NCBI GenBank assembly: GCA_004298615.1
Contig: SCPX01000056.1
Coordinates: forward strand, 6,876 to 70,875
Source: Patescibacteria group bacterium
GTDB lineage: Bacteria; Patescibacteriota; Patescibacteriia; SCPX01
DNA length: 64,000 nt
Direction: 5' to 3'
This document shows positions 37 to 19,921 of this stretch, piece by piece; the first letter of the stretch is position 1, and every line of letters begins with the position of its first letter. The notes beneath the pieces are model-generated. The model saw only the letters and a program-made list of their open reading frames with translations. It was not told the DNA's origin and did no database searches. The position numbers and the translations under genes were made by a program.

Positions 37-921
37 ATGAACGAAGATAAGCAAGTAAATGAAAATCAGCGCGAGGAAATGAAAGACGAGATTTATCACA
101 AAGAGCAAGAAATTGAGGAGGAAATTTCAGAGCTAAAGACAGAGCTGAAAGGCTATAAAAAGGCCATTCATCAATTGGATCGTGAAGGCCGCGGCTGGTT
201 TCGTTTTTGGATGATTCCTTTGGTAATAATTCTGGTTGGCGGCGGAATTTTAGGATTTATTTTTATTTCGCAATTCATCAAATACTACAATTTTGCCAAA
301 GAGGGGATACCGCTGGAAATTCTTTCGCAATCGTCCAGTCAATTCACTCAAACCCCGGGGATTAATCCGTCTTCTTCGTCATCTTCTTTGATTACGGCCG
401 CCAAGCTTGCGACCGCTGACGACCCAAGTCAAGGTAAGGAAAGCGCTAAAATTACTTTGGTGGAATTTTCCGATTTTCAGTGCCCGTATTCTGAAGAATC
501 GGCCGCGGTGGTCAAGCAATTGCTTCAAAGATATCCCGATGACATAAAATTGATTTATCGCGATTTTCCGGTGGATTCCATCCACTCTTTCGCGCGCAAA
601 GCGGCCGAGGCCGGCGCGTGCGCCCACGAGCAAGATAAATTTTGGGAATACCACGACAAGCTTTTTGAAAATCAGGAATCTTTAAATAATGAGGACAGCC
701 AAATTTTTTACAAAATCGCCAAAGATGTCGGATTGGACGAAAAGCTTTTCACGACCTGTTTCGGTTTTGGAAAATACAAATCGGAGGTAGAAGAAGATTA
801 TCAAGCCGGTGTTTCCGCCGGAGTGCGCGGCACACCTACCTGGTTTTTCAACGGCCAAAAAATCCAAGGCGCGCTTTCCTTGGAAACATTTGAAAAAATC
901 GCGCAGGAACTTTTAAAATAA
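37..921 (+). CDS. DsbA-like thioredoxin-fold protein. It has an N-terminal coiled-coil, one TM helix, and an active site that reads CPYS (CxxS) rather than CxxC.
   Basis: DsbA motifs are present ('LVEFSDFQCPYSEE', 'IYRDFPVD', 'TPTWFFNGQ'). The protein is paralogous to the ORF at 27185..28084, which carries CPFC. The DNA at 481-492 reads tgc ccg tat tct, confirming the CPYS. Confidence 0.7.
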   Translation: MNEDKQVNENQREEMKDEIYHKEQEIEEEISELKTELKGYKKAIHQLDREGRGWFRFWMIPLVIILVGGGILGFIFISQFIKYYNFAKEGIPLEILSQSSSQFTQTPGINPSSSSSSLITAAKLATADDPSQGKESAKITLVEFSDFQCPYSEESAAVVKQLLQRYPDDIKLIYRDFPVDSIHSFARKAAEAGACAHEQDKFWEYHDKLFENQESLNNEDSQIFYKIAKDVGLDEKLFTTCFGFGKYKSEVEEDYQAGVSAGVRGTPTWFFNGQKIQGALSLETFEKIAQELLK

Positions 922-2104: not shown

Positions 2105-3817
2105 ATGAAAAAATTCTTAATTTTTTTGATCATTGTTTTTGGGTTATTTGTTTCCGCAAATGTTTTTGCCGCGGAGAAGATTAATTCTTTTGCCGCTGAA
2201 ATAAATATCAATACAGATGCGAGTATCAATGTTTCCGAACGGATTGAATATGATTTCGGGTCAGCTCAAAAACACGGCATTTTCAGGGCTATCCCAATAA
2301 AATATCTAGCGCGAGGCGGGAGTTTCGCTTTGCGAATTTCCGATATTTCCGTTGCTGATGTAAAAGGCGCTCCGTATCAATTTACTACCTCATATCCGGG
2401 AAATAATATTCAAATAAAAATCGGCGATCCGAATATTGAAATTGCCGGCCGGCATATTTACATTATCCATTACACCATCAAGCGCGCGATAAATTTTTTC
2501 AATGATCACGACGAACTTTATTGGAATATTACGGGCAATGATTGGCCGGTAGCAATCGGTAGCGCTTCGGCCAAGATTATTTTGCCGCAAAAAATTGCCG
2601 GCGCTGATATCCAATCCGATTGTTTTGCCGGACCTTTTGGCAGTACGGAAAAGTGCAATTCAATGCTAAAAGGGCTGGGCCAAATAGATTCGGTCAGCTT
2701 CAATGAAAATCAATTGGCAGTTAATAACGGATTAACTATTGTGGTCGGTTTTCCAAAAGGAATGGTAATTAAGCCGAGCGTTTTGGTAAGTGCCGTAGAC
2801 TCGATAAGGGACAATAAAGGAATTTTATTTCCGATTTTTGTTCTTGTTGTTTATTTTGGTATGTGGTATAGGCGTAGGCGGTACCTAACTGATTGCGGGC
2901 CAACTATCGCGCAGTACGATCCGCCAGAGAATCTTTCGCCGGCTGAAGCAGGAATTTTGTGGCACGAACGGAGATGGGCAAGAGCCTCTAATATTGTTGC
3001 TGAAATTATTCATTTAGCCATTAAGGGTTATATCAAAATAATAAAAAAAGAAAATGGTGATTATGTATTAGAGTTGTTGCGCGATGATTTGCATGACCTG
3101 ACTGATTGTCAAAAAGAGATAATACAAGAAATAATATTAAAAAATGGGACTGATAAGAAGATCGCCCTTTCTCGCGTCGCTTTAAATTTAGAGAGCATAA
3201 TTTATTATCTTAATAACTGTTTTATAAATAATCTTATTAAAAATGGATATTTTTCCATATTTTATCGTCGCATTAATCAGATTGGATCAATTATTAGCTT
3301 TCTCCTTATAATCCCAAGTTTTGCTATTGGGATGATAGTTTTAGGCGGATTTATAACCGGTGCTTTAAGTTTCTTTAGCGCTATGATTATAATTTTTATT
3401 TTTAGTGCTTTTATGCTTACAACGAAATCTAAAGAAGGGGTTAAAGCCATTTGGTATATTGCGGGTTTGAAAATGTATATTGAGGTGGCGGAGGAGAGAC
3501 GAATACAATTTCATAATGCACCGGATAGAAATCCAGAACATTTTGAAAAGCTTTTGCCCTACGCTATAGCTTTAGGATTAGAAAAGCGGTGGGCGCAACA
3601 GTTCGTCGATGTATACACGCAAGCTCCAATGTGGTATGTTGACGACAAAATGAATCATTTCAATGTTAATAAGTTTGCGACAAGTGTTGCTTCCGTGAGG
3701 ATGTTGGGCGCTAATACTCTTCCAGAGTCTAGTGGAGCAAGCAGTGGGCGTAGTGGATTGAGCGGCGGCGGGGGATCGGGCGGCGGTTTTGGCGGTGGCG
3801 GTGGAAGGAGTTGGTGA
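2105..3817 (+). CDS. DUF2207-like membrane protein. It has a signal peptide, an extracellular domain and a TM region, and ends in a Gly-rich tail '...SW'.
   Basis: It is a paralog of the next ORF, with near-identical N-terminal domains ('AAEKINSFxAEIxINxDASINVSERIEYDFGSAQKHGIFR'). The C-terminus reads 'GGGGSGGGFGGGGGRSW'. Confidence 0.6.
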   Translation: MKKFLIFLIIVFGLFVSANVFAAEKINSFAAEININTDASINVSERIEYDFGSAQKHGIFRAIPIKYLARGGSFALRISDISVADVKGAPYQFTTSYPGNNIQIKIGDPNIEIAGRHIYIIHYTIKRAINFFNDHDELYWNITGNDWPVAIGSASAKIILPQKIAGADIQSDCFAGPFGSTEKCNSMLKGLGQIDSVSFNENQLAVNNGLTIVVGFPKGMVIKPSVLVSAVDSIRDNKGILFPIFVLVVYFGMWYRRRRYLTDCGPTIAQYDPPENLSPAEAGILWHERRWARASNIVAEIIHLAIKGYIKIIKKENGDYVLELLRDDLHDLTDCQKEIIQEIILKNGTDKKIALSRVALNLESIIYYLNNCFINNLIKNGYFSIFYRRINQIGSIISFLLIIPSFAIGMIVLGGFITGALSFFSAMIIIFIFSAFMLTTKSKEGVKAIWYIAGLKMYIEVAEERRIQFHNAPDRNPEHFEKLLPYAIALGLEKRWAQQFVDVYTQAPMWYVDDKMNHFNVNKFATSVASVRMLGANTLPESSGASSGRSGLSGGGGSGGGFGGGGGRSW

Positions 3818-3893
3818 AGAAACATTAATTGATAAATTTTATATATATTATGATAAAAAAATACAGAATAAAAAATATTGGAATAGAAGAAAT

Positions 3894-5603
3894 ATGATTA
3901 AATATTTAAGAAAAATATTTATTTTCACCTTTCTTGCCTTCGGTTTATTTATTTCCCCAAACGCTTTTGCCGCGGAAAAGATTAATTCCTTTGACGCTGA
4001 AATAAAAATCAATGCTGACGCGAGCATAAATGTTTCCGAACGGATTGAGTATGATTTCGGGTCAGCTCAAAAACATGGGATTTTCAGGGATATTCCGATA
4101 AAATACCAAGCCAGAGGAGGAAACTTCGCTTTGCGAATTTCCGATATTTCCGTAAACGATGAGAAAGGAACGCCGAATAAATTTACAACATCATATCCGG
4201 GCGACAACATTCAAATCAAAATCGGCGATCCGAATATTGAGATTACCGGCCGGCATATTTATATTATAAACTATACGATTAAACGCGCGATAAATTATTT
4301 TGATAATCACGATGAATTGTATTGGAATATTACGGGTAATGATTGGCCGGTGGCGATCGGCAGCGCTTCGGCCAAGATTATTTTTCCGCAAAAAATTGCC
4401 AGCGCTGATATCCAATCCGATTGTTTTGCCGGACCTTTCGGCAGCACGATAAGATGCAATTCCGATTTTATGCAATCCGGCATGACCAATTATGTTGGTT
4501 TTGATAATAATCAGTTGTCCGCATATAACGGATTAACCATTGTCGTCGGATTTCCCAAAGGAATCGTGATAAAACCGAGTAATTTTGAAGTTGCTTTGGA
4601 AACGGCCAAGGATAATTGGATAATCGGTTTGCCGATTATCGTTTTGATCGTTTGTTTTTATTTATGGTACACGCGCGGACGGGATCCGGCCGGCCGGGGC
4701 ATTATTATCGCCCAGTACGATTCGCCGGACAATCTGACTCCGGCCGAGGTGGGGACAATCGCGGACGAACACGCGCAGAATAAAGACATAACCGCCGAGA
4801 TAATTTTCTTGGCAACGCTCGGTTATTTGAAAATCAGACAAACTGAAAATAAAATTTTAATTTTCAAATCAAAAGATTACGAATTGGAAATAATTAAAAA
4901 CGATTTCAGCCAACTCAATGATTTTCAAAAGACAATAATGAATGGATTGTCCAAGGAGGCGGCCGCTCAAATAGTAAAATTATCTGATCTGAAAAATAAA
5001 TTTTACAAAGATCTGAAAGAAGCTAAAGATAAAGTTTATCAATCCGTAGCCGAAAAGGGTTATTTTAAGACTAACCCCAATAAAATCAGGGGAATATTCG
5101 CTCTCATCGGCGTGCCAATGATTATGCTGGGATTTTTTCTTGGAGGTTTTTTTGGCGCAATCGGGACAATCAGTCTGGCCGTATCAGGCGCTGTTTTGGT
5201 GATATTCGGTTATATTATTCCGGCGCGCACCAAAAAAGGAGTGGAGACAAAAGAGCACATTTTGGGACTCAAATTATATATGTCGGTGGCGGAAGCGCGG
5301 CGTTTGGAATTCCATAACGCTCCGGAAAAGAAGCCGGAAGTTTTTGAAAAACTTTTACCGTACGCGATGGCGCTGGGGGTGGAAAAACAATGGGCCAAGC
5401 AATTTGAAGGAATATATGATCAGCAGCCAAGTTGGTATCAGGGATCGGCCGGGGCTTTTAACGCCGTTATGTTTACCAGTATTATGAGCGATTTTTCGCA
5501 TTCGGCCAATTCAACAATGGCATCATCGCCTGGAGGCGGAAGCGGTTTTTCCGGAGGAGGTTCGGGCGGCGGGGGAGGCGGCGGCGGGGGAGGGAGCTGG
5601 TGA
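3894..5603 (+). CDS. DUF2207-like membrane protein, tandem paralog of the preceding ORF
   Basis: It shares the same N-domain and 'EFHNAPEKKPEVFEKLLPYAxALG' motif, and ends in a poly-Gly tail 'GGGSGGGGGGGGGGSW'. The start is taken at 'MIKYLRK'; the 5' extension to 3789 overlaps the upstream gene. Confidence 0.6.
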   Translation: MIKYLRKIFIFTFLAFGLFISPNAFAAEKINSFDAEIKINADASINVSERIEYDFGSAQKHGIFRDIPIKYQARGGNFALRISDISVNDEKGTPNKFTTSYPGDNIQIKIGDPNIEITGRHIYIINYTIKRAINYFDNHDELYWNITGNDWPVAIGSASAKIIFPQKIASADIQSDCFAGPFGSTIRCNSDFMQSGMTNYVGFDNNQLSAYNGLTIVVGFPKGIVIKPSNFEVALETAKDNWIIGLPIIVLIVCFYLWYTRGRDPAGRGIIIAQYDSPDNLTPAEVGTIADEHAQNKDITAEIIFLATLGYLKIRQTENKILIFKSKDYELEIIKNDFSQLNDFQKTIMNGLSKEAAAQIVKLSDLKNKFYKDLKEAKDKVYQSVAEKGYFKTNPNKIRGIFALIGVPMIMLGFFLGGFFGAIGTISLAVSGAVLVIFGYIIPARTKKGVETKEHILGLKLYMSVAEARRLEFHNAPEKKPEVFEKLLPYAMALGVEKQWAKQFEGIYDQQPSWYQGSAGAFNAVMFTSIMSDFSHSANSTMASSPGGGSGFSGGGSGGGGGGGGGGSW

Positions 5604-6040: not shown

Positions 6041-6613
6041 TTATATTTTGCCAACCAAATCCAGCCCGGGCTTCAGAGTTTTTTCTCCCGGATGCCAGCT
6101 GGCCGGACAGACCAGACCTTTATTTTCCCGCACGAATTTCGCGGCTTGAAGTTTTCTCAAAATCTCGGCGCCTGATCGGCCGATGCTGTTGTCGTGAATA
6201 TCGCTTGCTTTAAGTACGCCATCCGGATCAATGATGAATGTCCCGCGCAAAGACAAGCCCTCATTTTCCAGATAGGTGCCGAAAGCGCGGCATAAATTTC
6301 CGGTCGGATCGGCCATCATCGGGTATTTGATTTTTTTAATGACCGCTGAAGCGTCATGCCACGCCTTGTGAGTAAAAACCGTGTCTGTACTCACGCTTAG
6401 GATCTCCGCTTCGTTTTTCTGGAATTCCGGATAAAGATCGGCCGCTTCCCCCAATTCGGTGGGGCAGATAAATGTAAAATCAGCCGGATAAAATAGAAGC
6501 ACGAGCCATTTTCCCCGGTAATCAGAGAGCTTTATTTTTTTAATTTCTTCTTCGTGATAAGCGTCTGATTCAAAATCGCTTATTTTTTGGCCTATTGCTG
6601 TCATAAAATGCAT
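6041..6613 (-). CDS. 2-Cys peroxiredoxin (AhpC/Prx family)
   Basis: The peroxidatic motif 'FTFICPTE' is present, along with a resolving Cys in 'LVCPASW', at typical Prx length. Confidence 0.85.
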   Translation of the reverse strand: MHFMTAIGQKISDFESDAYHEEEIKKIKLSDYRGKWLVLLFYPADFTFICPTELGEAADLYPEFQKNEAEILSVSTDTVFTHKAWHDASAVIKKIKYPMMADPTGNLCRAFGTYLENEGLSLRGTFIIDPDGVLKASDIHDNSIGRSGAEILRKLQAAKFVRENKGLVCPASWHPGEKTLKPGLDLVGKI

Positions 6614-7786: not shown

Positions 7787-7825
7787 TCAAGTAAGCGCTC
7801 AAAGGTTGGTTGAGCGCTTACTTGA
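7787..7825 (+). promoter_or_regulatory. 15-17-bp perfect inverted repeat (caagtaagcgctcaa-N7-ttgagcgcttacttg) immediately 5' of, and abutting, the adhesin start codon
   Basis: The repeat is seen in sequence with no T-run after it. It would sequester the region just upstream of ATG 7827. Confidence 0.4.
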
Positions 7826-7826
7826 G

Positions 7827-10800
7827 ATGAATAAGACTATGAAGATTATAAAGTTTAAAAAAATATTTGCCATAATATCGCTGGCGGCGCAGCTTATTTT
7901 TCAGCCTGTGATCCCCATTTTTGTGCTGGCGCAAGAGGCGGATACGAGTATAGCGCCGCCGCCAAATATCGCTCCGATTGCGGCAGTAAGCGGACCGTCC
8001 TTAATAACGCCGGGCGGAACAGCGCAATTTTCTTCGGCCGGATCATCCGATCCGGACGGTTTTATTTCGGGATTTTCCTGGGATTTTTCTTATGACGGCC
8101 AAACATTCAATATTGAATCAACCGAAGCCAACCCGGCTTATTCATATAAAACTTTCGGCGTTTATACCGCAGCCTTGCAAGCGATTGACAATCAAGGCGC
8201 AGTCAGCAATATTTCAACCGCTTCCATAACCGTAAATTCACCGCCAAAAGTAATAAGAATTGAAATGGAGCCGATACCGGCATATTGGGATTACGAACTG
8301 GACGGAAAATTGCGTTCCTATGATCCGGAAGGGGACGCGATTACGCCCAAACGGCAATGGTATAAAAACGGCATACCGATACCGGGCGCTATCAATCGGC
8401 ATTTGGATCTTTCGTCCTTTACCGATATTCAACCAAATGATGTCTTGACGGTCGCCATATCGGCTTGCGATAAATACGCTTGCAGTCCGCCCTTTACTTC
8501 CGATCCTCTGGCTATTTCAAATTATTTGCCGGAAGCCAAAGCCAACGGGCCTTATTCCGGCTACGCTTTCAAGCCCATAAAATTTTCATCCGCCGGATCA
8601 CTGGACACCGAAGGGCCGATCGCCGGATATGAGTGGGATTTTGATTATGACGGAGAAAATTTTACGGTAGATTCAACGGAAGAAAATCCGGAATTTACTT
8701 ATCAAAAAGGCGGTAAATTCAAAGCGGCTTTGAGAGCGATTGATAAGACGGGAGGAAAAAGCGCAATCAACGCGGCCAGCGTTTCCGTCAATGGCCCGCC
8801 GGTAATCAAAGACATAGTTTTCTTTCCGTCAGATCCTCATTTGGGCGACGATTTAAACGCTTTGCCCGCTGTTTTGGACAGCGATGGAGATCCGGTGACG
8901 CTGAAATACAAATGGAGAAAAAATGGCAATCTGATTCCCGGCGCGGTCGGCGATAATCTGGATTTGGCCATAGGAGGCGATATTCGCAAGGGCGACAGCC
9001 TGGAATTGGAGGCAGAAGCCTGCGATCCTTTTTCGTGTTCGCCTGTTTTCAGATCGGCAAAAATGGTAATTGTTAATAAAACGCCTACTGCCTTGATAGA
9101 CGGCCCGTTTCTTGCCAAGCGCGGCGAGCCGTTGATTCTTGCCGCGCCCGATTCGGGCGACCAAGACGGAGTAATTTCCAAATACGAATGGGATTTGCAT
9201 TATGACGGGAATTCTTTTGACGCGGAATCCGAAGGGCTTTCTCCGCAAATAAATTTTGACGCGATCGGATCATACACTATCGGTTTGCGCGTGACGGACG
9301 ATGAAGGAGCGGTCAGTGAAATCGCCACATCCATTGTCACGGTTTGCGAGCCAAGCGAATGCAGCAAATCAGTTTTAGTCAATAATCATAACGAAGCGTC
9401 TGTTGCCAATAATATTGTCGTGGACGCGTATACGGGAAATAATAATGTTGCCAGAGGAAACGGCGGCGATGTGGGCGATGACGGCCAGGCGGGCAGCGGC
9501 GGGACTGGATTGATTTCAAGCGGCAATGCGGTAGGCGTGGCCAACGCTTCAAATATAGTCAACACCAATCTTATCAATGCGGCCGTGGATCAATCCCATC
9601 AAAATGTTTACGGGATTTATCAAGGTGATTTGAATGTCGCCGGACAATTGGACGCGCTTTCCGGACAATCAGGCGGGACAGGCGACATTTCTCTTTTGAC
9701 CATAAATAATCAAAATTCAGCCGATGTGTCAACAATCATAACGGTCAATGCGGGGACCGGCGGCAATTTATCGGCCGGAAACGGCGCCGTGGCAAATACG
9801 GGCAATGTCCAGGCCGCGGCCAATATTTTCAATTTGGTCAATACCAATGTCGTGGGCGGGAGTTTCTTATTTTCCAGTATGAATGTTTTCGGCGAATGGA
9901 ATGGCGATCTGGTCTTGCCAGGAGATTTGGTTTACACTCTGCAGTCCCAGGGAATAGACATTCTTGAACTCTTGAACAATAATACTTTGGAATTGGAAAA
10001 TATTATCAAAGCCCTGGGCAATACGGGCGATAATTCGGCCGCGGCTCTTGAAGGAGGCGATTCGGAAATTTCCACCGGCCTGGCCCGAGTATTTTCCAAA
10101 GTGTTTAATTTTGCCAACTTGAATATCGTAGGCGGAAATTATCTGCTGTTTATTCCCAATATTCTCGGGCAGTGGAAAGGCAAAGTGATAGACGGGGAAG
10201 ACGGAGATTATAATCTGGCTTTTGTAAAGGAAGGAAAAAAGAAAAAAGTCAAAACCGTGGCGGCCAACGGCAATAAAGCCAAAGTCTCCAACGCGATTTA
10301 CATAAACGGCGATACCGGAGCGAATTCCGCCGGATCGGATAAAAGCAATGCGTCCGTGAATTCCGGACGGGTGGATGTGGTCGCCAATATAATGAATTTC
10401 GTCAATTCAAATTTGGTCAATACCAATATTGTCGTTTCCGTGCTCAATATGTTCGGTTCGTGGAGCGGAAATATCGTGTACGCGTATCCTGATTTGGCCG
10501 CGGCCCTGGATGATGGCGCAGACTTTGTGGCGCCGGGAAACTCATTGATCTATACCGTTGCTTACGGCAATGGCGGAAAAGCCAAAGCCAAAGAAGTGAA
10601 AACATCTTTGACTTTGCCCGAAGGCGTGGTTTATCAATCCAATACCGGCGGCGCGGATCCAGTAATTTCCGGAAATACTTTGACTTGGTCATCGCCGGTT
10701 GTTGCCAACAGCGAAGTGAAATCATTTACCGTGGCTACGACAGTCTCTTCCGATCTTGCGCCCGCTACTGCGACTCTTGAGGCGGTCGTGGCTGTTTCCA

Positions 10801-12167
10801 CGCAGACCAGAGAAAAACGCACGGAAAATAATTTTGCAACCATTCAAACCGCGGTGCAATTTCCGGCAAATGATCCGCCGGCGCCGCCCGGGCCGGATAC
10901 GGGATCGGGAAATCAGCCGCCTGCCGACAATAATGGCACTGATAATATATCAGCTTCTTTGGTGGTGAAAAAATCCAATGACGCCAAAGGATCCAAAGCG
11001 CCGGGTGATACTGTTAATTTTACGGTTTCAGTGGAAAATACGGGGAATGCGTTGATTGATAAAGTCAAAATCGCCGACATTTTGCGCGATCCAAAGGACG
11101 AGAGCCTAAAAAAGAATTATTGGGAAGTCGGCGAAGTGATGCCCGGCGAAGAATTTGAAATTACTTATTCGGTCGCCGTTCCTTCGGACGCTGTGGCCGG
11201 AACCTACACGAATACGGCGCAGGCATCGGGAGTCATTCAAGGCGATGACGCGATTATTTATTCCAATGAAGCGAAAAGTTCATTTTCAGTCAGAGATTCT
11301 CCGCCAAATAATAATGCAAAAGACGGCAATACGGGCGATCAAAATAATCAGTCGGACTTAAATGTTGATTCAGGCAGGACGGGCGGGAATAGTACCGGCG
11401 AAAAAATTTCCGATAAGCTTGAGATTTCAAAGACCAATGATCTGACCGGTCCCATTTTGCCGGGAAGTAAAGTAGGATATTCCATTACGCTGAAAAATAA
11501 TGGCGACAGTACGATAAAAAATATCGTGGTGAGCGACGAATTGGTAAATGGTTTGAGCAAAATAGTGCTGGCGGCCGAAGATTTGCGGGACAAGAAAATA
11601 ACAACTTGGGAGTTTAAGGAATTAAAGCCCGGAGTGGGTTTGCGCATCAGCTATCAATTGGCCATTTCAGGAAACGCGCCGGCCGGCTTTTATACCAATA
11701 CCACTTGGGCCGAAGGGGAGGCGCAGGGCGGCGATAAGGTGTATTCCAATGTGGCTTCTTCAACGATTGAAATTTTATCAATGCTGGGCGTAAATATTCC
11801 GGCCGATTCCGGAGATTTCTTCGGCATTGCCTCGGCTTCGGCCGCGGAAAATATGCTGGGCTTCCCGTCTTTATTTTCTCCGCTTAGGCAAATTGCCGGC
11901 GCGGAGACTTGCCAGAGCTGGCCCCAAAGCATTTGGATTCTAATGTTCCTGCTTTACGCTTCCATCCTCGTCTGGTTTTATTTCTTTGACGGCAAAAAAT
12001 GGAGAGTCGTTTTCCCGTCAGCTTTGACAATCGTGGCCATCGGCCTGTATCTCATTTACGCCTGTCCGGGATCATTCATTTGGTGGCCGATGTCGGTCCT
12101 TGCTTCCGGATTTGTATTGACTGCTCTGGCTATAAATTTTCATCGCAACAGAAGAGCGATGGCTTAA
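7827..12167 (+). CDS. Giant (~1450-aa) cell-surface protein. Its parts are a signal peptide, three or more PKD-like domains interleaved with cadherin-like DxDGD modules, a Gly/Asn-rich repeat region, two DUF11-type repeats and a C-terminal TM anchor.
   Basis: PKD signatures ('FSSAGSSDPDG...FSWDFSYDGQ', 'FSSAGSLDTEG...YEWDFDYDGE', 'PDSGDQDGVISKYEWDLHYDG') are present. DUF11-like motifs ('APGDTVNFTVSVENTGNA', 'PGSKVGYSITLKNNGDS') and C-terminal hydrophobic helices are also present. The start is ambiguous among 7806, 7827 and 7839. Confidence 0.75.
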   Translation: MNKTMKIIKFKKIFAIISLAAQLIFQPVIPIFVLAQEADTSIAPPPNIAPIAAVSGPSLITPGGTAQFSSAGSSDPDGFISGFSWDFSYDGQTFNIESTEANPAYSYKTFGVYTAALQAIDNQGAVSNISTASITVNSPPKVIRIEMEPIPAYWDYELDGKLRSYDPEGDAITPKRQWYKNGIPIPGAINRHLDLSSFTDIQPNDVLTVAISACDKYACSPPFTSDPLAISNYLPEAKANGPYSGYAFKPIKFSSAGSLDTEGPIAGYEWDFDYDGENFTVDSTEENPEFTYQKGGKFKAALRAIDKTGGKSAINAASVSVNGPPVIKDIVFFPSDPHLGDDLNALPAVLDSDGDPVTLKYKWRKNGNLIPGAVGDNLDLAIGGDIRKGDSLELEAEACDPFSCSPVFRSAKMVIVNKTPTALIDGPFLAKRGEPLILAAPDSGDQDGVISKYEWDLHYDGNSFDAESEGLSPQINFDAIGSYTIGLRVTDDEGAVSEIATSIVTVCEPSECSKSVLVNNHNEASVANNIVVDAYTGNNNVARGNGGDVGDDGQAGSGGTGLISSGNAVGVANASNIVNTNLINAAVDQSHQNVYGIYQGDLNVAGQLDALSGQSGGTGDISLLTINNQNSADVSTIITVNAGTGGNLSAGNGAVANTGNVQAAANIFNLVNTNVVGGSFLFSSMNVFGEWNGDLVLPGDLVYTLQSQGIDILELLNNNTLELENIIKALGNTGDNSAAALEGGDSEISTGLARVFSKVFNFANLNIVGGNYLLFIPNILGQWKGKVIDGEDGDYNLAFVKEGKKKKVKTVAANGNKAKVSNAIYINGDTGANSAGSDKSNASVNSGRVDVVANIMNFVNSNLVNTNIVVSVLNMFGSWSGNIVYAYPDLAAALDDGADFVAPGNSLIYTVAYGNGGKAKAKEVKTSLTLPEGVVYQSNTGGADPVISGNTLTWSSPVVANSEVKSFTVATTVSSDLAPATATLEAVVAVSTQTREKRTENNFATIQTAVQFPANDPPAPPGPDTGSGNQPPADNNGTDNISASLVVKKSNDAKGSKAPGDTVNFTVSVENTGNALIDKVKIADILRDPKDESLKKNYWEVGEVMPGEEFEITYSVAVPSDAVAGTYTNTAQASGVIQGDDAIIYSNEAKSSFSVRDSPPNNNAKDGNTGDQNNQSDLNVDSGRTGGNSTGEKISDKLEISKTNDLTGPILPGSKVGYSITLKNNGDSTIKNIVVSDELVNGLSKIVLAAEDLRDKKITTWEFKELKPGVGLRISYQLAISGNAPAGFYTNTTWAEGEAQGGDKVYSNVASSTIEILSMLGVNIPADSGDFFGIASASAAENMLGFPSLFSPLRQIAGAETCQSWPQSIWILMFLLYASILVWFYFFDGKKWRVVFPSALTIVAIGLYLIYACPGSFIWWPMSVLASGFVLTALAINFHRNRRAMA

Positions 12168-12547: not shown

Positions 12548-13474
12548 ATGAAAAAAATATTTTTAGGCCTGGGCGTTTTCGCTCTTGCCTTGGCATTCAT
12601 TCCGATGTTTGCCGCCTTTGAAGCTCATGTGATCAATGTGACGGCCACGATTGAAAACGCTCTGAAGGTCAGTCCGAATCCTGTAGAATTCGGCACCGTG
12701 TTTCCAAATGAAACGGTATACAGAGATATGACCGTTGCGTTAAGTGAGTCTTTCTCAAGAGAAGATCGCGTGGACGATGTGGAGTACAAGATCGTACAAA
12801 AACCCAAACCAAAACCTCAAACACAAGGAACGACAGACTATTGCATACTGGAAAAAGCGGAACTTTACGCTTGTATAACCGCTCAACAGAATCCACCCAA
12901 CAACAAATCTCTCCAGGACGCCATAATGGCTTGTTATGGGAATTATGACACAACTCAATGTTATCCATCTATGTGTCAGTTTCTTTCCAAGCAGCCCGAT
13001 AGGCCGCAATGTTCAGACGGAGTAGATAATGATGGAGATTTGGCTATTGACGCTCAAGATCAGGGCTGCCTTGATGAAGCAGGTAATTATCATGCAGAGG
13101 ATGGTAATGAGGCTTTACCGGGCGTGCAGCCAGCAACAGATCAAGGGGTAGACGCGCCGCATCCGATTGCTGAATGTATGGACGGAATAGATAATGATTT
13201 AGATGGAAATATTGATTACTCTGCCGATAAAGAATGTGCGCAATATGGCGATAATAGCGAGTTTACGGCTGGAGATCAACCCCAAGTTAAGGGTAGGTTG
13301 TCTAAATTGGAAAACGATAAGCAGGATCTATGGATGCTTGATTTAGAAGTCCCGTGTTTTATCGGCCAATGCAAACAAGGCGAAGTCGGCTTATTGCCGC
13401 CCGCATGGGAGCACAGTAAGTTTGGTTGCGATCTGTGGGTAGAGGTGCAAGGAATTTCTGAAACGCCTACATGA
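12548..13474 (+). CDS. Secreted protein with a SipW-cognate-like leader, an Ig-like N-domain, Asp-rich DxDxDG repeats and a conserved C-terminal Cys module
   Basis: The leader reads '...LAFIPMFAAFEAHVINVTATIEN'. Repeats 'CSDGVDNDGDLAIDAQD' and 'CMDGIDNDLDGNIDYSAD' follow. The C-terminus reads 'VPCFIGQC...EHSKFGCDLWVEVQ'. Confidence 0.6.
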   Translation: MKKIFLGLGVFALALAFIPMFAAFEAHVINVTATIENALKVSPNPVEFGTVFPNETVYRDMTVALSESFSREDRVDDVEYKIVQKPKPKPQTQGTTDYCILEKAELYACITAQQNPPNNKSLQDAIMACYGNYDTTQCYPSMCQFLSKQPDRPQCSDGVDNDGDLAIDAQDQGCLDEAGNYHAEDGNEALPGVQPATDQGVDAPHPIAECMDGIDNDLDGNIDYSADKECAQYGDNSEFTAGDQPQVKGRLSKLENDKQDLWMLDLEVPCFIGQCKQGEVGLLPPAWEHSKFGCDLWVEVQGISETPT

Positions 13475-13510
13475 GGCTAAAATTATTCGCATTAAAGAAA
13501 GGAGGCGCTT

Positions 13511-14254
13511 ATGAATAGGATTAGAAAAATAATACTGTACGGACTCGGAGGATTGACGGTTTTGGCGTTCATTCCGCTATTTGCCGCTTTTGAAGCGCAT
13601 GTGATCAATGTGACGGCGCAGATTGAAAACGCGCTATTCGTGCATCCGGAGTCGCTGGAATACGGAACTGTGTTCCCGCAGGAACATTTAAACACTTCCT
13701 TTTTCGTGACTTTCAGCGAATCTTTTTCCGAGAGCAGTCAGACAAGAGTCGGCACGATTGAGTATGCGATTAAGCAAAAGCCGAAACCGTTGCCCGCATA
13801 TGTCGCACAAATCGGCGTGGATTCGGCGCGCGCGTGGTGCCACGATAATTATCCGCAAACGCCGTATGATCCGGCTATCACGGTCTGGCAAGATTATCTT
13901 TCAAGGTGTTATCCCACCATATGCCCAGCCCTGTCAAAGCACCCGGATAATAATCCTTCTACCGGACCAAACGCCAATAACGATATCGGTCTGCCGGCGT
14001 TTCATAATCCCTGGACGGAGTTTGCGATAGGAAAGCTGGTTAAGTTCCCGAACATAAACAATGACCCGGCGGATACTTGGACTATTGATCTGGCAGTGCC
14101 GTGCTTTAAAGGGCAGTGCGCGCAAGATTGGCCGAATTTCGTGCTTGGGCAAAATCCCAATGCCGGAGATCCTCTGCAATACGAGCTTCCGCCGGAATTG
14201 GAGCATCAAACATTCGGCTGCGATCTGTGGGTGGAAGTGACAAAAATCTATTAG
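13511..14254 (+). CDS. Paralogous secreted protein with the same leader and the same C-terminal Cys module
   Basis: It has '...LAFIPLFAAFEAHVINVTAQIEN', 'LEYGTVFPQE' and a C-terminus 'VPCFKGQC...EHQTFGCDLWVEVTK'. Confidence 0.6.
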   Translation: MNRIRKIILYGLGGLTVLAFIPLFAAFEAHVINVTAQIENALFVHPESLEYGTVFPQEHLNTSFFVTFSESFSESSQTRVGTIEYAIKQKPKPLPAYVAQIGVDSARAWCHDNYPQTPYDPAITVWQDYLSRCYPTICPALSKHPDNNPSTGPNANNDIGLPAFHNPWTEFAIGKLVKFPNINNDPADTWTIDLAVPCFKGQCAQDWPNFVLGQNPNAGDPLQYELPPELEHQTFGCDLWVEVTKIY

Positions 14255-14450
14255 TTAAAAAAACTCCCCCGCCGTGAGGCGGGGGCGCCCGCACCGTTCG
14301 CTGGCTGTCCCTCGGTTAGCCGAATCGGTGCGGGACACTGCACCTTAGCACAAGAAGCTTATAAAGTCAACCCTCGCTTTGATCTTTGCATTTTATTGCG
14401 GGCTTGAAGCGGGGGGAGACGGGCCCCCGATTATCATTAATCTAAAAATT

Positions 14451-14681
14451 ATGGAAGAGTTTCTGCTGGAAAATCAGTGGATAATCATTCTGGCGATTCT
14501 CTGGACTCTGCCGTGGAAAGGCATAGCGCTTTGGAATTCGTCTCGCAATGGAGATACCGGCTGGTTTATAGCGCTTTTGATTGTCAATACGCTGGGCATT
14601 TTGGAAATATTGTATATTTACGTATTCAGCAAAAATAAATCAAAAGAACGCGAATCGGCAATGCCTCAAACAATGAAGTAA
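14451..14681 (+). CDS. Small two-TM membrane protein (DUF5652-like, 'WTLPWKGIALW...NTLGILEILYIYVF')
   Basis: It has a hydrophobic profile. The start is chosen at 'MEEFLL'; the 5' part of the ORF (14379-14450) is GC-rich hairpins and probably non-coding. Confidence 0.45.
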   Translation: MEEFLLENQWIIILAILWTLPWKGIALWNSSRNGDTGWFIALLIVNTLGILEILYIYVFSKNKSKERESAMPQTMK

Positions 14682-14818
14682 ATTAGATGATTTAATTTAT
14701 TTCACTCGGCTTAGACCAATTTTCTTCTGCGGAACTCGCTCGCTTGCGCTTCGCTCAAACAGTCCTCGTGCGAAAATTGGCCAACCCTCGCGAAATAAAA
14801 TATATTAATAACTATATG

Positions 14819-15304
14819 AACGATATTAAAAATCAAACAATAGAAAAACCGGAAGAGCCGGAAATCGCAACGCCGGAGAAAAAAGAGAAGTATCGGATGC
14901 GCTTAAGCGATAAAATAATTGCCGCGGTTTTAGCCGTATTTTTCATTTGTATTTTTTACATTGTGCTGGACGCGAACAAATACCGCGCCACAGTCCGCAT
15001 CGCGCCGGGCGAGGGGATAGTGGGCATTAATCCGTCCACTGCCTCTTTGGACTTTGGCGATCTTTCGCGCGGCGCTTCGGCCGTGCGGCGGGTGGCTTTG
15101 AAAAACGGCACCAATCTTTCGATGTATGTGGCGATTTTAAAAATCGGCAGCATTTCCGATCTTGTAGACATAAGCAAAAATAATTTTAAGCTAAAGCCCA
15201 GAAGCGAAGAAAAGATTGAATTCACGGTTTTTGTTCCGGCTTCGGCGGAGATAGACAAGACTTATTCAGGAAGAGTTTATTTGTTTAAGATCCCGATATT
15301 TTAG
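14819..15304 (+). CDS. Membrane-anchored protein with an ASH/PapD-like (choice-of-anchor-D / DUF1573-type) Ig-fold domain
   Basis: An N-terminal TM helix ('IIAAVLAVFFICIFYIVL') is followed by 'TASLDFGDLSRGASAVRRVALKNGTNLSMYV...KIEFTVFVPASAE'. It is translationally coupled to the peptidase gene (stop at 15304, ATG at 15307). The start is uncertain among 14744, 14819 and 14897. Confidence 0.5.
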   Translation, partial: NDIKNQTIEKPEEPEIATPEKKEKYRMRLSDKIIAAVLAVFFICIFYIVLDANKYRATVRIAPGEGIVGINPSTASLDFGDLSRGASAVRRVALKNGTNLSMYVAILKIGSISDLVDISKNNFKLKPRSEEKIEFTVFVPASAEIDKTYSGRVYLFKIPIF

Positions 15305-15306
15305 TT

Positions 15307-15735
15307 ATGGCCACAAATAAAAAGTATTTGAGTTGGTTTATTTATTTTGCCGGACTCGCGATTTTGATTTTTGCCTTGCCGAAATTGCTTTCCCTTGGCT
15401 TGAGAACGCCCTCGCCTATGGCCGCCATCACTTCCGGATCAATGTGGCCGGTTTTGAAGCAAGGCGATTTGATTTTTATCCAAGGAATTGGCGCCAAAGA
15501 TTTAAAAATCGGCGATGTCGTAGTATACCGGAATCAAATCAATAATACCTTTACTATCCACCGGATCGCCAAATTGGAAAAAGAATTTATCACCACCAAG
15601 GGCGACGCGAATTTCCAGGAAGATCCGCCGGTGCGGTACGAAGACATAGTCGGCCGCGCGCTCACATTATCAAATAAGCCGCTCCGCCTACCATATTTAG
15701 GATCAATCACTATGCTGGCGAGCGGTTTGAAATGA
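15307..15735 (+). CDS. Signal peptidase I of the ER/archaeal type (S26B; SipW/Sec11-like)
   Basis: All three boxes are ER-type: 'SGSMWPVLKQGDLIFI' is Ser box B, 'TIHRIAKL' has HR instead of the P-type KR, and 'TKGDAN' is the Sec11/SipW box E. Confidence 0.75.
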   Translation: MATNKKYLSWFIYFAGLAILIFALPKLLSLGLRTPSPMAAITSGSMWPVLKQGDLIFIQGIGAKDLKIGDVVVYRNQINNTFTIHRIAKLEKEFITTKGDANFQEDPPVRYEDIVGRALTLSNKPLRLPYLGSITMLASGLK

Positions 15736-17755: not shown

Positions 17756-19921
17756 ATGGGAAAATATGGCCGTTTGGCAATTTTTGTTTTTATTTTTGCG
17801 AGTGCGGTGTCGGGACTCGCATTTTTTGCAGTAGCCGAAAAGCCGATTGAGCCCGCCGATATTGCCAGGGCAGACGCCAAGGTAAAAGCGTTAAAAAAAA
17901 TTGACGCTGATAAAAATAAAATTTTTGATGATTTGGAAGAGAAATTAAAAGGAAAAAACGACGCGGAGACCGCTGAAGTGATAATTTTGTTTGATCATAA
18001 ATTATCGGACGCGGAGGACGCGGAGATTGCGCGAAAAATTTCAGAGAAAAACCCGGCCCATCGCTATACTGCAATTCCTGGAATGGCAATCACGCTTTCC
18101 AAGCGAGAAATTAAAGATCTCGCATCATCTCCTCTGATTAAACAAATTGAAGACGATGCCGAGGTCCGTCCTTTTCTTGATAATTCCGTCAAATGGTTCG
18201 GCACTCAAAAAGCGCGGAAGGATTTTAGCGTGGACGGAAACGCGGACGGACTGGCCGCTTATTCCAAAGATGATATTGTGGCGGCCGTGCTTGATTCAGG
18301 TGTTGATCCCAATCATATTGATCTGGACGGCGGAAAAATTATCGGGTGGAAAGATTTTGCCACGGGCCAGGCCAATCCTTATGATCAAGTACCGGGCTGC
18401 GGCGGACACGGTACGCATGTTTCTTCAATTATTGCCGGCTCGGGCGAAGGCAATGTACTTTATAAAGGCGTGGCGCCGGGCGCCGCTTTGGTTGCCGTAA
18501 AAGTTTTAAAGCGGCAGGGCAATATTTGCACCGGCACGGTAAGCGATATTAATGCCGGCATTCAATGGGTGATTGACAATAAGGTTGCTTTGGGAATTGA
18601 AATAATAAATATGAGCTTGGGGGGAACGGGGTGTTCGAACGGCGCTGATTCGTTGTCTTTGATGGTCAATAGCGCTGTCGCTTCCGGAATTGCGGTTACT
18701 CTTGCGGCTGGCAATGAAGGGCCGGGCACCTGCACTATCAGTTCTCCGGCCGCGGCCGCCGATGCCATTACTGTCGGCGCTATGGCGGATGTGAATCCCG
18801 GCGCAAGCAGTCTTGACGGATATTGCGACGGCACGAGTTTAACCGCAGATCTGCCGAACAAAGGATTTTATTTGGCTTGTTTTTCTTCGCGCGGACCGAC
18901 AGCCGATGGACGCACCAAGCCGGACATCGCTTCGCCCGGCGTAATGATTATGGCCGCGCAGGCCGGCACAACCAATGGCTATGTAAGTTATAATGGTACG
19001 AGTATGGCCAGTCCTTTTACTGCCGGCGTGGCCGCGCTTATGCTGGATGCCAATCCGGGCCTGACGCCCGCCCAGATTAAATCAATGATAAAAGGTGCCG
19101 CCAAGGATTGGGGGCCGAGCGGAGACGATGTTGATTATGGCGCGGGCCGACTGGACGGATATGAAGCAATCAAAGCGGCCGGAAGTTTCACGGGCGCCAA
19201 TATCATAGTACCGGATCATCAATATTTTGCCGGAAGTCTTTCGGGCAGCGGCGATTTTGATTGGTACGATATTAATATTACGGATGCGGATTATCCGATC
19301 GCCGTCGCTATGATTATGCCGAATTGGACGGGGACATCCAGTCCCGATTTTGATATGAAGCTCTATCTGGCCGACGGGACAACGCAGGCGGGATCGTCCG
19401 AAGGCGTATTGCGTCAGGAAACAATCGGGTATCAGCCTGTTTCTGCCGGCGCTTATAAATTAAGAGTTTATCAATACGCGGGCAGCGGCAATTATTTTCT
19501 GGATATTTCCGCGCGTACGGCGGTGGTCAGCATTACTCTCGCCACTGACGGAAGCGTCAATTTCGGCACGGTAGCGCTGAATGCTTCAAAAGACACGACC
19601 CCCTCCGGCATTAATGATCCGGAAATAGTGCGCGTGGATACGGGTCCGGCTGATTTGTCCGTGCGTTCCACCAATTTTTCAGACGGGAGCAATAATTGGA
19701 GCTTGGGAACAAGCCCGGGCGCCAATCAAATCAAATGGGATTTTTCAAAAGATGGCAGCGCTTGGACGAATTTCGCGGCCGCCGGAACAAATTATCCTTT
19801 TGATTCGGCAGTGCCGGAATCAGACACGCGCGATCTCAATCTGCGCCTCACGCTGCCCTCAAGCACCTCGTCCAATAACAGTCACAGCGCGACAGTGACG
19901 ATAGTGGCGACGACGCCTTAA
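17756..19921 (+). CDS. Secreted subtilisin-like serine protease (S8) with an N-terminal propeptide-like region and C-terminal beta domains
   Basis: The catalytic triad motifs are present: 'VAVLDSGVDPNH' (Asp), 'HGTHVSSIIAG' (His) and 'GTSMASPFTAGVAALM' (Ser). Confidence 0.85.
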   Translation: MGKYGRLAIFVFIFASAVSGLAFFAVAEKPIEPADIARADAKVKALKKIDADKNKIFDDLEEKLKGKNDAETAEVIILFDHKLSDAEDAEIARKISEKNPAHRYTAIPGMAITLSKREIKDLASSPLIKQIEDDAEVRPFLDNSVKWFGTQKARKDFSVDGNADGLAAYSKDDIVAAVLDSGVDPNHIDLDGGKIIGWKDFATGQANPYDQVPGCGGHGTHVSSIIAGSGEGNVLYKGVAPGAALVAVKVLKRQGNICTGTVSDINAGIQWVIDNKVALGIEIINMSLGGTGCSNGADSLSLMVNSAVASGIAVTLAAGNEGPGTCTISSPAAAADAITVGAMADVNPGASSLDGYCDGTSLTADLPNKGFYLACFSSRGPTADGRTKPDIASPGVMIMAAQAGTTNGYVSYNGTSMASPFTAGVAALMLDANPGLTPAQIKSMIKGAAKDWGPSGDDVDYGAGRLDGYEAIKAAGSFTGANIIVPDHQYFAGSLSGSGDFDWYDINITDADYPIAVAMIMPNWTGTSSPDFDMKLYLADGTTQAGSSEGVLRQETIGYQPVSAGAYKLRVYQYAGSGNYFLDISARTAVVSITLATDGSVNFGTVALNASKDTTPSGINDPEIVRVDTGPADLSVRSTNFSDGSNNWSLGTSPGANQIKWDFSKDGSAWTNFAAAGTNYPFDSAVPESDTRDLNLRLTLPSSTSSNNSHSATVTIVATTP

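Follow-up and report, generated by a model that had tools for sequence, protein, structure and literature searches.

We analysed two adjacent genes, here called P1 and P2, within 64,000 nucleotides (nt) of contig SCPX01000056.1 from a Patescibacteria group bacterium (assembly GCA_004298615.1, positions 6,876 to 70,875 of the forward strand); this whole stretch of DNA is referred to below as the window. Judged by sequence, P1 and P2 are paralogous secreted proteins with an immunoglobulin (Ig)-like fold, and they belong to an undescribed Parcubacteria operon that encodes its own archaeal-type signal peptidase. By analogy with characterised systems, we put at roughly 0.5 the probability that the two proteins are subunits of a conserved, adhesive surface-fibre (fimbria-like) system of Parcubacteria, resembling either TasA/TapA/SipW of Bacillus subtilis or the archaeal tafi. 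We found no account of such a cluster in the literature on SipW or TasA together with Patescibacteria, the candidate phyla radiation (CPR) or Parcubacteria, a search whose coverage was incomplete and which leaves absence unproven.

P1 and P2 share one Ig-like domain

The open reading frames (ORFs) of P1 and P2 lie exactly where a first-pass annotation of this DNA had placed them, and their products are identical in sequence to the NCBI hypothetical proteins EPN15_03350 and EPN15_03355, respectively. That annotation had proposed that the two were paralogues with a common C-terminus, and this was borne out, since full-length BLASTP aligned them with 34% identity (E=3e-33). The similarity between the C-termini, on which the proposal turned, also stands alone in a pairwise alignment: the last 54 aa of P1 match the last 63 aa of P2 at E=7e-16, and VPCFxGQC together with EHxxFGCDLWVEV is common to both. 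At the N-terminus each has a Sec-type signal peptide and then AFEAHVINVTAxIENAL, and the similarity also runs through FGTVFPxE, LSESFS, VxYxIxQKPKP and CYPSxCxxLSKxPD.

AlphaFold2 modelled P2 as a single domain, a beta-sandwich with a helical insertion, with a mean predicted local distance difference test score (pLDDT) of 83 and a predicted template modelling score (pTM) of 0.75. In the corresponding model of P1 the core had a pLDDT of about 90 and residues 150-245 scored 50-68; the AQDW..FV..NP helical segment is missing from P1. Apart from the leader and the N-terminal motif, each protein is one Ig-like beta-sandwich of ~220 aa, which we call the module. The earlier description of conserved ends flanking a variable middle does not survive this comparison, as P1 and P2 share the whole domain and the middle of P1 consists of insertions in its loops. 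Likewise, the C-terminal Cys segment does carry the shared motifs that had been noted there, but it is not a module in its own right; it is formed by the last beta-strands of the Ig-like domain (Table 1).

Pairing of the cysteines was deduced from their co-occurrence over 223 full-length module sequences. C138 (in xLCxxLSK; P2 numbering is used here) and C237 (in FGC) were both present in 210 sequences and both absent from 13, and neither was ever found without the other. For C198 and C203 (VPC...GxC) the corresponding counts were 217 and 5, with one sequence having a single member of the pair, and for C110 and C133, the third pair of the P2 type, they were 36 and 177, with 10 sequences having one only. 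The majority type has KPKC-IDC as its third pair, and the two forms of third pair are mutually exclusive across this set. We infer that the sandwich is locked by three disulfides, with the last strand (FGC) tied to a cysteine in the middle of the protein. Disulfide-stabilised extracellular proteins, as had been suggested, are therefore plausible, but the bonds would not be confined to the C-terminus because the FGC cysteine pairs with a mid-protein partner. The window also contains a gene for a DsbA-like thioredoxin (37..921), which is of relevance to extracellular disulfides.

Relatives of P2 are numerous. A search at 90% clustering returned 802 matches, the best 120 of which were all at least 56% identical to P2, and a profile search gave 583 clusters at 50% identity, every one of them from Patescibacteria. 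In an alignment of 40 P2 orthologues AFEAHVxNVxAxIENALxVHP, TVFPQE, FSxSFS and QKP were invariant and six cysteines were conserved. The Pfam search that the first-pass annotation had proposed for the C-terminal segment returned no model: when P1, P2, the third protein P3 described below, the N-terminal 70-75 aa of these three proteins and 18 relatives were scanned against Pfam and NCBIfam, including matches up to E<=10, nothing was found for either the module or the leader. A family of 583 clusters is consequently annotated only as hypothetical, and the source names of the relatives were all 'hypothetical' apart from one beta-helix-repeat label.

A conserved gene order with its own signal peptidase

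The genomic context of the module was examined at 79 loci from metagenome-assembled genomes (MAGs) of Patescibacteria, mostly of Parcubacteria/Paceibacteria lineages. The genes follow a fixed order on one strand, in which one to four motif-bearing module proteins are followed by a membrane protein with an Ig domain (protein I), a signal peptidase (protein S) and a motif-bearing protein that lacks the module. Protein I was present at 62 of the 79 loci and protein S at 59, and the loci without them were mostly truncated contigs. The gene for protein I always lies directly upstream of the peptidase gene, with a gap of 3 nt in the window and an overlap at the locus designated L001. The positions of all components in the window are listed in Table 1.

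Table 1. Components of the gene cluster and their sequence features, numbered from the first letter of the window.
Feature	Position	Strand	Description
P1	12548..13474	+	ORF, 308 aa, 12 Cys; variable (minor-type) module protein with signal peptide, shared N-terminal motif, Ig-like module, two acidic Cys-bounded loop insertions
P1, shared motif AFEAHVINVTATI	12614..12652	+	aa 23-35; putative donor strand
P1, acidic repeat 1, CSDGVDNDGDLAIDAQDQGC	13010..13069	+	aa 155-174; loop between LSKxPD and the (N/D)D..FH motif
P1, acidic repeat 2, CMDGIDNDLDGNIDYSADKEC	13175..13237	+	aa 210-230; loop directly after the conserved (F/P)HxP
P1, C-terminal module strands, VPCFIGQC ... EHSKFGCDLWVEV	13349..13447	+	model strands E259-268 and E295-304
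P2	13511..14254	+	ORF, 247 aa, 6 Cys; conserved (major-type) module protein
P2, shared motif AFEAHVINVTAQI	13586..13624	+	aa 26-38; modelled as strand 32-40, confidence below that of the core
P2, module C-terminus, VPCFKGQC ... FGCDLWVEV	14096..14239	+	last two strands, E187-195 and E234-246 (model)
Protein I	14816..15304	+	cytoplasmic tail, one transmembrane (TM) helix, Ig (ASH/PG_0320-like) domain; start inferred from orthologue alignment
Protein S	15307..15735	+	142 aa; archaeal/endoplasmic reticulum (ER)-type (SipW-like) signal peptidase I
P3	15816..16463	+	215 aa, 7 Cys; signal peptide and AFEAHVINVTATI as in P1/P2, body unrelated

Protein S matched the TIGR02228 model for archaeal/ER-type signal peptidase I with 94.3 bits, well above the cutoff of 51.85, whereas it scored 38 bits against the Bacillus SipW equivalog model NF046067 and did not reach the cutoff of 190. 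Across 58 orthologues of protein S the Ser, His and Asp (GDxN) boxes, TSGSMWP, IHR and TKGDAN, are conserved; the enzyme is therefore of the Ser/His type and presumably active. No LepB-type peptidase was found by motif in the 64-kb window, a result that is uninformative for a window of this size.

Protein I is a candidate for the membrane anchor of the system, or for a nucleator comparable to TapA. Its Ig domain gave Pfam matches to PG_0320-like_C (6.8e-4) and ASH (0.027), both of which were below the cutoff. The TM helix is followed by A.KY.A.V.V..EGE..VGVNPT.E.LDFGDL and then by the Ig domain, a layout that loosely mirrors the leader and first strands of the module proteins.

The last gene of the cluster encodes P3, a third protein with the same leader, which the first-pass annotation had missed. 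P3-like bodies occur at 22 of the 79 loci, and elsewhere the same position is held by motif-bearing non-module proteins of 324-938 aa. The P3 family comprises 31 clusters, and all five of those with a source name come from Patescibacteria/CPR MAGs. Paralogues of the module proteins in other genomes carry C-terminal VWA, SpaA-like (SpaA_2) or beta-helix domains.

To compare conservation of the components, we took 19 genomes in which P2 has a clear orthologue and determined for each component the median identity to its counterpart in the window. P2 came out highest at 62%, followed by protein S (55%), protein I (52%) and P3 (51%), and the best P1 match had a median of 34%. As P2 is the best conserved component and P1 found matches only at the level of paralogues, P2 appears to be the core subunit and P1 a lineage-specific variant. 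P1 has just three close orthologues (86, 82 and 55% identity), after which all matches are to paralogues.

A gene for a DUF5652 membrane protein (14451..14681) stands between P2 and protein I in the window. Since only one of the 79 related loci searched has a homologue, this gene does not belong to the regular set. Two GC-rich hairpins flank it: the first (14266-14285) immediately follows the stop codon of P2 and lacks a T-run on the + strand, and the second is at 14410-14429.

The shared motif and a model for fibre assembly

The feature that unites the operon is the segment after the signal peptide. A[FY]EAH[VI]xNVTAxI is at least 90% conserved in 154 distinct module proteins and in 37 non-module proteins, and the similarity between these two classes stops directly after it. 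At the predicted processing site there is an invariant Ala, preceded by a variable residue at -2 and an aliphatic or aromatic residue at -3; this is the (-3,-1) signature of type I signal peptidase, and we therefore predict cleavage between the Ala and the [FY]EAH that follows. Removal of the signal peptide is thus most likely to occur after the Ala of ...x-x-A[FY]EAHV. The strand that normally comes first in an ASH/PapD-like Ig domain (L.V.P..L.FG.V) lies behind the motif, which would accordingly constitute an N-terminal extension of that fold. The motif was unstructured in the model of P1 and had lower confidence than the core in that of P2.

Motif and module can be separated: in some clusters the final gene encodes a module protein from which the motif is missing and in which there is a canonical V-S-A site. 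Such last-gene proteins were seen at loci L002 (12357-14309), L004 (8957-10063), L008 (10355-12310), L013 (12760-14706) and L049 (13516-14619); after V-S-A they continue with (S/T)HV.ID.NLSV.P..ISF.TVFPGE and often have a C-terminal extension of 140-400 aa. These motif-less proteins could be end subunits that act as acceptors only.

A potential alternative is that cleavage takes place further downstream, after the V-T-A of NVTA, in which case the motif would be a propeptide used for targeting or quality control and would be absent from the mature proteins. The V at -3 and the A at -1 would fit the signal-peptidase rule, and in cargo proteins without the module the similarity ends within two residues past NVTA. 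However, this site is about 12 residues beyond the hydrophobic core, a long way for a type I peptidase bound to the membrane, and the T and V of NVTA are variable (NVKA, NVEA, NITA and NVVA are all found). In the module proteins, moreover, conservation continues unbroken into IENALxVxP, and the substrates of SipW retain their AF(N/H)D motif after cleavage. We regard a cleaved propeptide as improbable.

Among the systems that have been worked out, the two closest combine a dedicated signal peptidase with fibre formation. In B. subtilis tapA overlaps sipW, mature TasA begins with AFND and uses its first 11 residues as the donor strand, and TapA shares the N-terminal segment of TasA and nucleates assembly (PMC9674648, PMC10151520). 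The haloarchaeal Tat-fimbriae (tafi, TafA-G) and the related archaeal clusters of DUF1102, signal-peptidase and DUF5305 genes encode a dedicated signal peptidase, paralogous donor-strand subunits, a tip or nucleator and an anchor (PMC11821415). The present cluster is like tapA-sipW-tasA in that an archaeal/ER-type signal peptidase is encoded within the operon itself, in that substrates which are otherwise dissimilar have in common a short motif that directly follows the signal peptide (TasA/TapA have AAF(N/H)D, the proteins here AAFEAH), and in that an accessory gene for an Ig-fold protein abuts the peptidase gene (tapA-sipW there, I-S here; PMC10151520). It differs in that the subunits have a putative ASH/PapD-like Ig sandwich with three probable disulfides whereas TasA is a jelly-roll, in that there are up to four subunit paralogues along with a motif-only cargo protein, in that protein I retains a TM helix, and in that the cluster is restricted to Patescibacteria.

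With tafi it shares the layout of a cluster of five to seven genes for a dedicated signal peptidase I and two to four small, paralogous beta-sandwich proteins, along with a proposed tip or nucleator subunit and a proposed membrane anchor. Tafi assembles by donor-strand exchange, which is proposed here by analogy; its leaders are of the Tat type and it is archaeal, whereas the leaders here are of the Sec type and the system is bacterial (CPR). Membership of the tafi/DUF1102 family itself was also considered, and a Pfam scan found no DUF5305 (TafG) partner and the subunits did not qualify as DUF1102/TafA-type. The resemblance to the TasA and tafi systems is functional and organisational.

Because the cluster shares the logic of both systems, we adopted a fibre model. 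According to this model each subunit would be made with a Sec-type signal peptide, and protein S would cleave the shared leader so as to expose a near-invariant N-terminal strand, FEAHVxNVTAxIEN, which would then insert into the sandwich of the next subunit by donor-strand exchange. P2 would be the major subunit that forms the shaft. P1 would be a fast-evolving, decorated minor subunit bearing two acidic, probably cation-binding disulfide loops, and may act in the same way as those paralogues in other genomes that are fused to VWA, SpaA-like or beta-helix domains. P3 and other proteins with the motif alone would be able to donate a strand but not to accept one, and would therefore cap one end of the fibre, the acceptor end, while protein I with its TM helix and Ig domain may anchor or nucleate the fibre at the membrane. 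The first-pass annotation had already suggested modular fibre or matrix subunits; the fibre or matrix part of that idea gains from the SipW-like peptidase in the operon, the common N-terminal strand and the VWA, SpaA-like and beta-helix fusions, and the modular C-terminus has to be dropped. A more specific proposal is that the cluster encodes a hitherto undescribed pilus of Patescibacteria that is not of type IV, that is built without a chaperone by donor-strand exchange in dependence on a SipW-like peptidase, and that consists of a new family of disulfide-locked Ig-like subunits, with P2 as the conserved major subunit, the decorated P1 and the adhesin-type fusion proteins as interchangeable minor ones, P3 as a cap with the motif alone and protein I as a base that is anchored in the membrane and resembles TapA. 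This we put forward tentatively, at somewhat less than an even chance.

Several results weigh against the fibre model. The family profile had no match at E<=10 among all PDB sequences, those of TasA included, and Foldseek searches with the P2 model returned nothing at E<0.1. P1, P2 and 16 relatives gave no profile match to the TasA/camelysin family (PF12389, Peptidase_M73) at E<=10, and they do not have the fold of that family. When protein I was compared with the module by hhalign the similarity was not significant, with a probability of 0.1% for the single sequence and of 1-18% for 61 orthologues (E 0.0013 at 18%). Finally, an invariant motif could be explained by recognition by the peptidase alone.

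The last of these points leads to an explanation that would not need to invoke a polymer, which is that the dedicated peptidase recognises the motif as an extended signal and that the mature proteins are monomeric surface adhesins or matrix proteins, perhaps docked singly on protein I. It would account for a motif that is common to otherwise unrelated cargo of 215 to more than 1100 aa and for the large adhesin-type C-terminal domains of many members. It also agrees with the complete and confident model of the P2 monomer (pLDDT 83), in which the strand packs in cis, and with the fact that the structural tie to known donor-strand fibre subunits is a generic Ig fold only. Sorting and display would not, however, readily explain why about 12 near-invariant, strand-forming residues follow the predicted cleavage site, as residues in this position are normally unconstrained. 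Furthermore, P2 is more conserved than the enzyme, as expected for a structural subunit that interacts with itself, and the nearest operon analogues, TasA and tafi, are polymers. We consider display without polymerisation unlikely, though well short of negligible.

Acidic loops of P1, genomic surroundings and implications

P1 carries two Asp-rich repeats, as the first-pass annotation had recorded, and these are absent from P2 in the alignment. The consensus that had been given for them, DNDxDG-xID, does not describe repeat 1, which reads DNDGD-LAID. Repeat 1 is confined to P1 and its two closest orthologues in the alignment, whereas repeat 2 is also found in a few more relatives. Overall, an acidic repeat is present in about 20 of 373 collected family members, located either within the module or in a C-terminal tail.

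A resemblance of the repeats to thrombospondin-3 or dockerin loops had also been put forward, and this found no support: neither TSP_3 nor Dockerin_1 was matched by P1 (E<=1) or by the repeat segments on their own (E<=10). The repeats do match NCBIfam NF033662 (acidic double-disulfide repeat) marginally, with 43.1 bits against a cutoff of 41 over two stretches, each of which covers model positions 6-28 of 32. Each has two cysteines (C155/C174 and C210/C230), compared with the four that the family name implies. There is a further likeness between the C-x-DG-x-DND...C loops and CxDGxDNDCDG, the MopE-type putative metal-binding motif of PF11617, for which the score of 13.3 bits was far below the cutoff of 27. 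The P1 repeats differ from both families in that they are insertions in the loops of another domain. Binding of Ca2+ by these loops would be a reasonable guess from their DxDxDG-like chemistry.

It could be argued that metal binding is the primary role of the conserved N-terminus. If the signal peptide were removed after AFEA, the His that follows would become N-terminal and could combine with the His of FHxP in a Cu site similar to a histidine brace, as found in lytic polysaccharide monooxygenases (LPMOs), CopC and X325, with the loops of P1 adding further metal sites. The His of AFEAH and that of FHxP are invariant or nearly so across the family, the variant module proteins have their V-S-A site directly before (S/T)HV, and the PF11617 match, weak as it is, is to a putative metal-binding motif. 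On the other hand a signal-peptidase site with F/Y at -3 is a poor one, P3 and other motif-only proteins do not have the context of the second His, and the PF11617 score lies far under its threshold. We therefore think a metal centre of this kind very improbable.

Directly upstream of P1 is a gene for a 1453-aa surface protein (7806..12167, +) with PKD, DUF11 and DUF7507 domains. The protein lacks the shared motif; its signal peptide is an ordinary one, and at its C-terminus there is a hydrophobic region of several helices. No counterpart was seen at three related loci that we inspected, where module proteins fused to VWA domains lie upstream instead. The 380 nt of non-coding DNA between this gene and P1 (12168-12547), which are partly GC-rich, had no Rfam match and were predicted to fold only mildly better than shuffled sequences (z = -2.1); promoter and terminator scans stayed at background level. 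Other genes in the window include two tandem, overlapping DUF2207 paralogues (2105..5603), a peroxiredoxin (6041..6613, -) and a secreted subtilase with an N-propeptide and a PPC domain (17756..19921). Of 67 ORFs of at least 120 aa, 59 are on the + strand, and most of the eight on the - strand overlap longer + strand ORFs. The cumulative GC skew climbs almost monotonically over the 64 kb.

Parcubacteria and other CPR bacteria are ultra-small and are thought to live attached to other microbes, and to our knowledge type IV pili are the only surface appendages that have been studied in CPR bacteria so far. The cluster described here is conserved, specific to this taxon and recognisable by its A[FY]EAHVxNVTAxI tag, and it is a concrete candidate for a second attachment structure. 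By the tag one can also recognise a group of cargo and adhesin proteins (with VWA, SpaA-like or beta-helix domains or acidic loops) that probably mediate contact with the host. If the fibre model is correct, the logic of TasA and tafi, that is a dedicated archaeal-type peptidase together with a shared N-terminal donor strand, would hold for the CPR as well and for a third subunit family that is unrelated in structure. The cluster would then encode a candidate host-attachment organelle of episymbionts, and fibres that couple a peptidase to donor-strand assembly would have arisen independently on a different fold.

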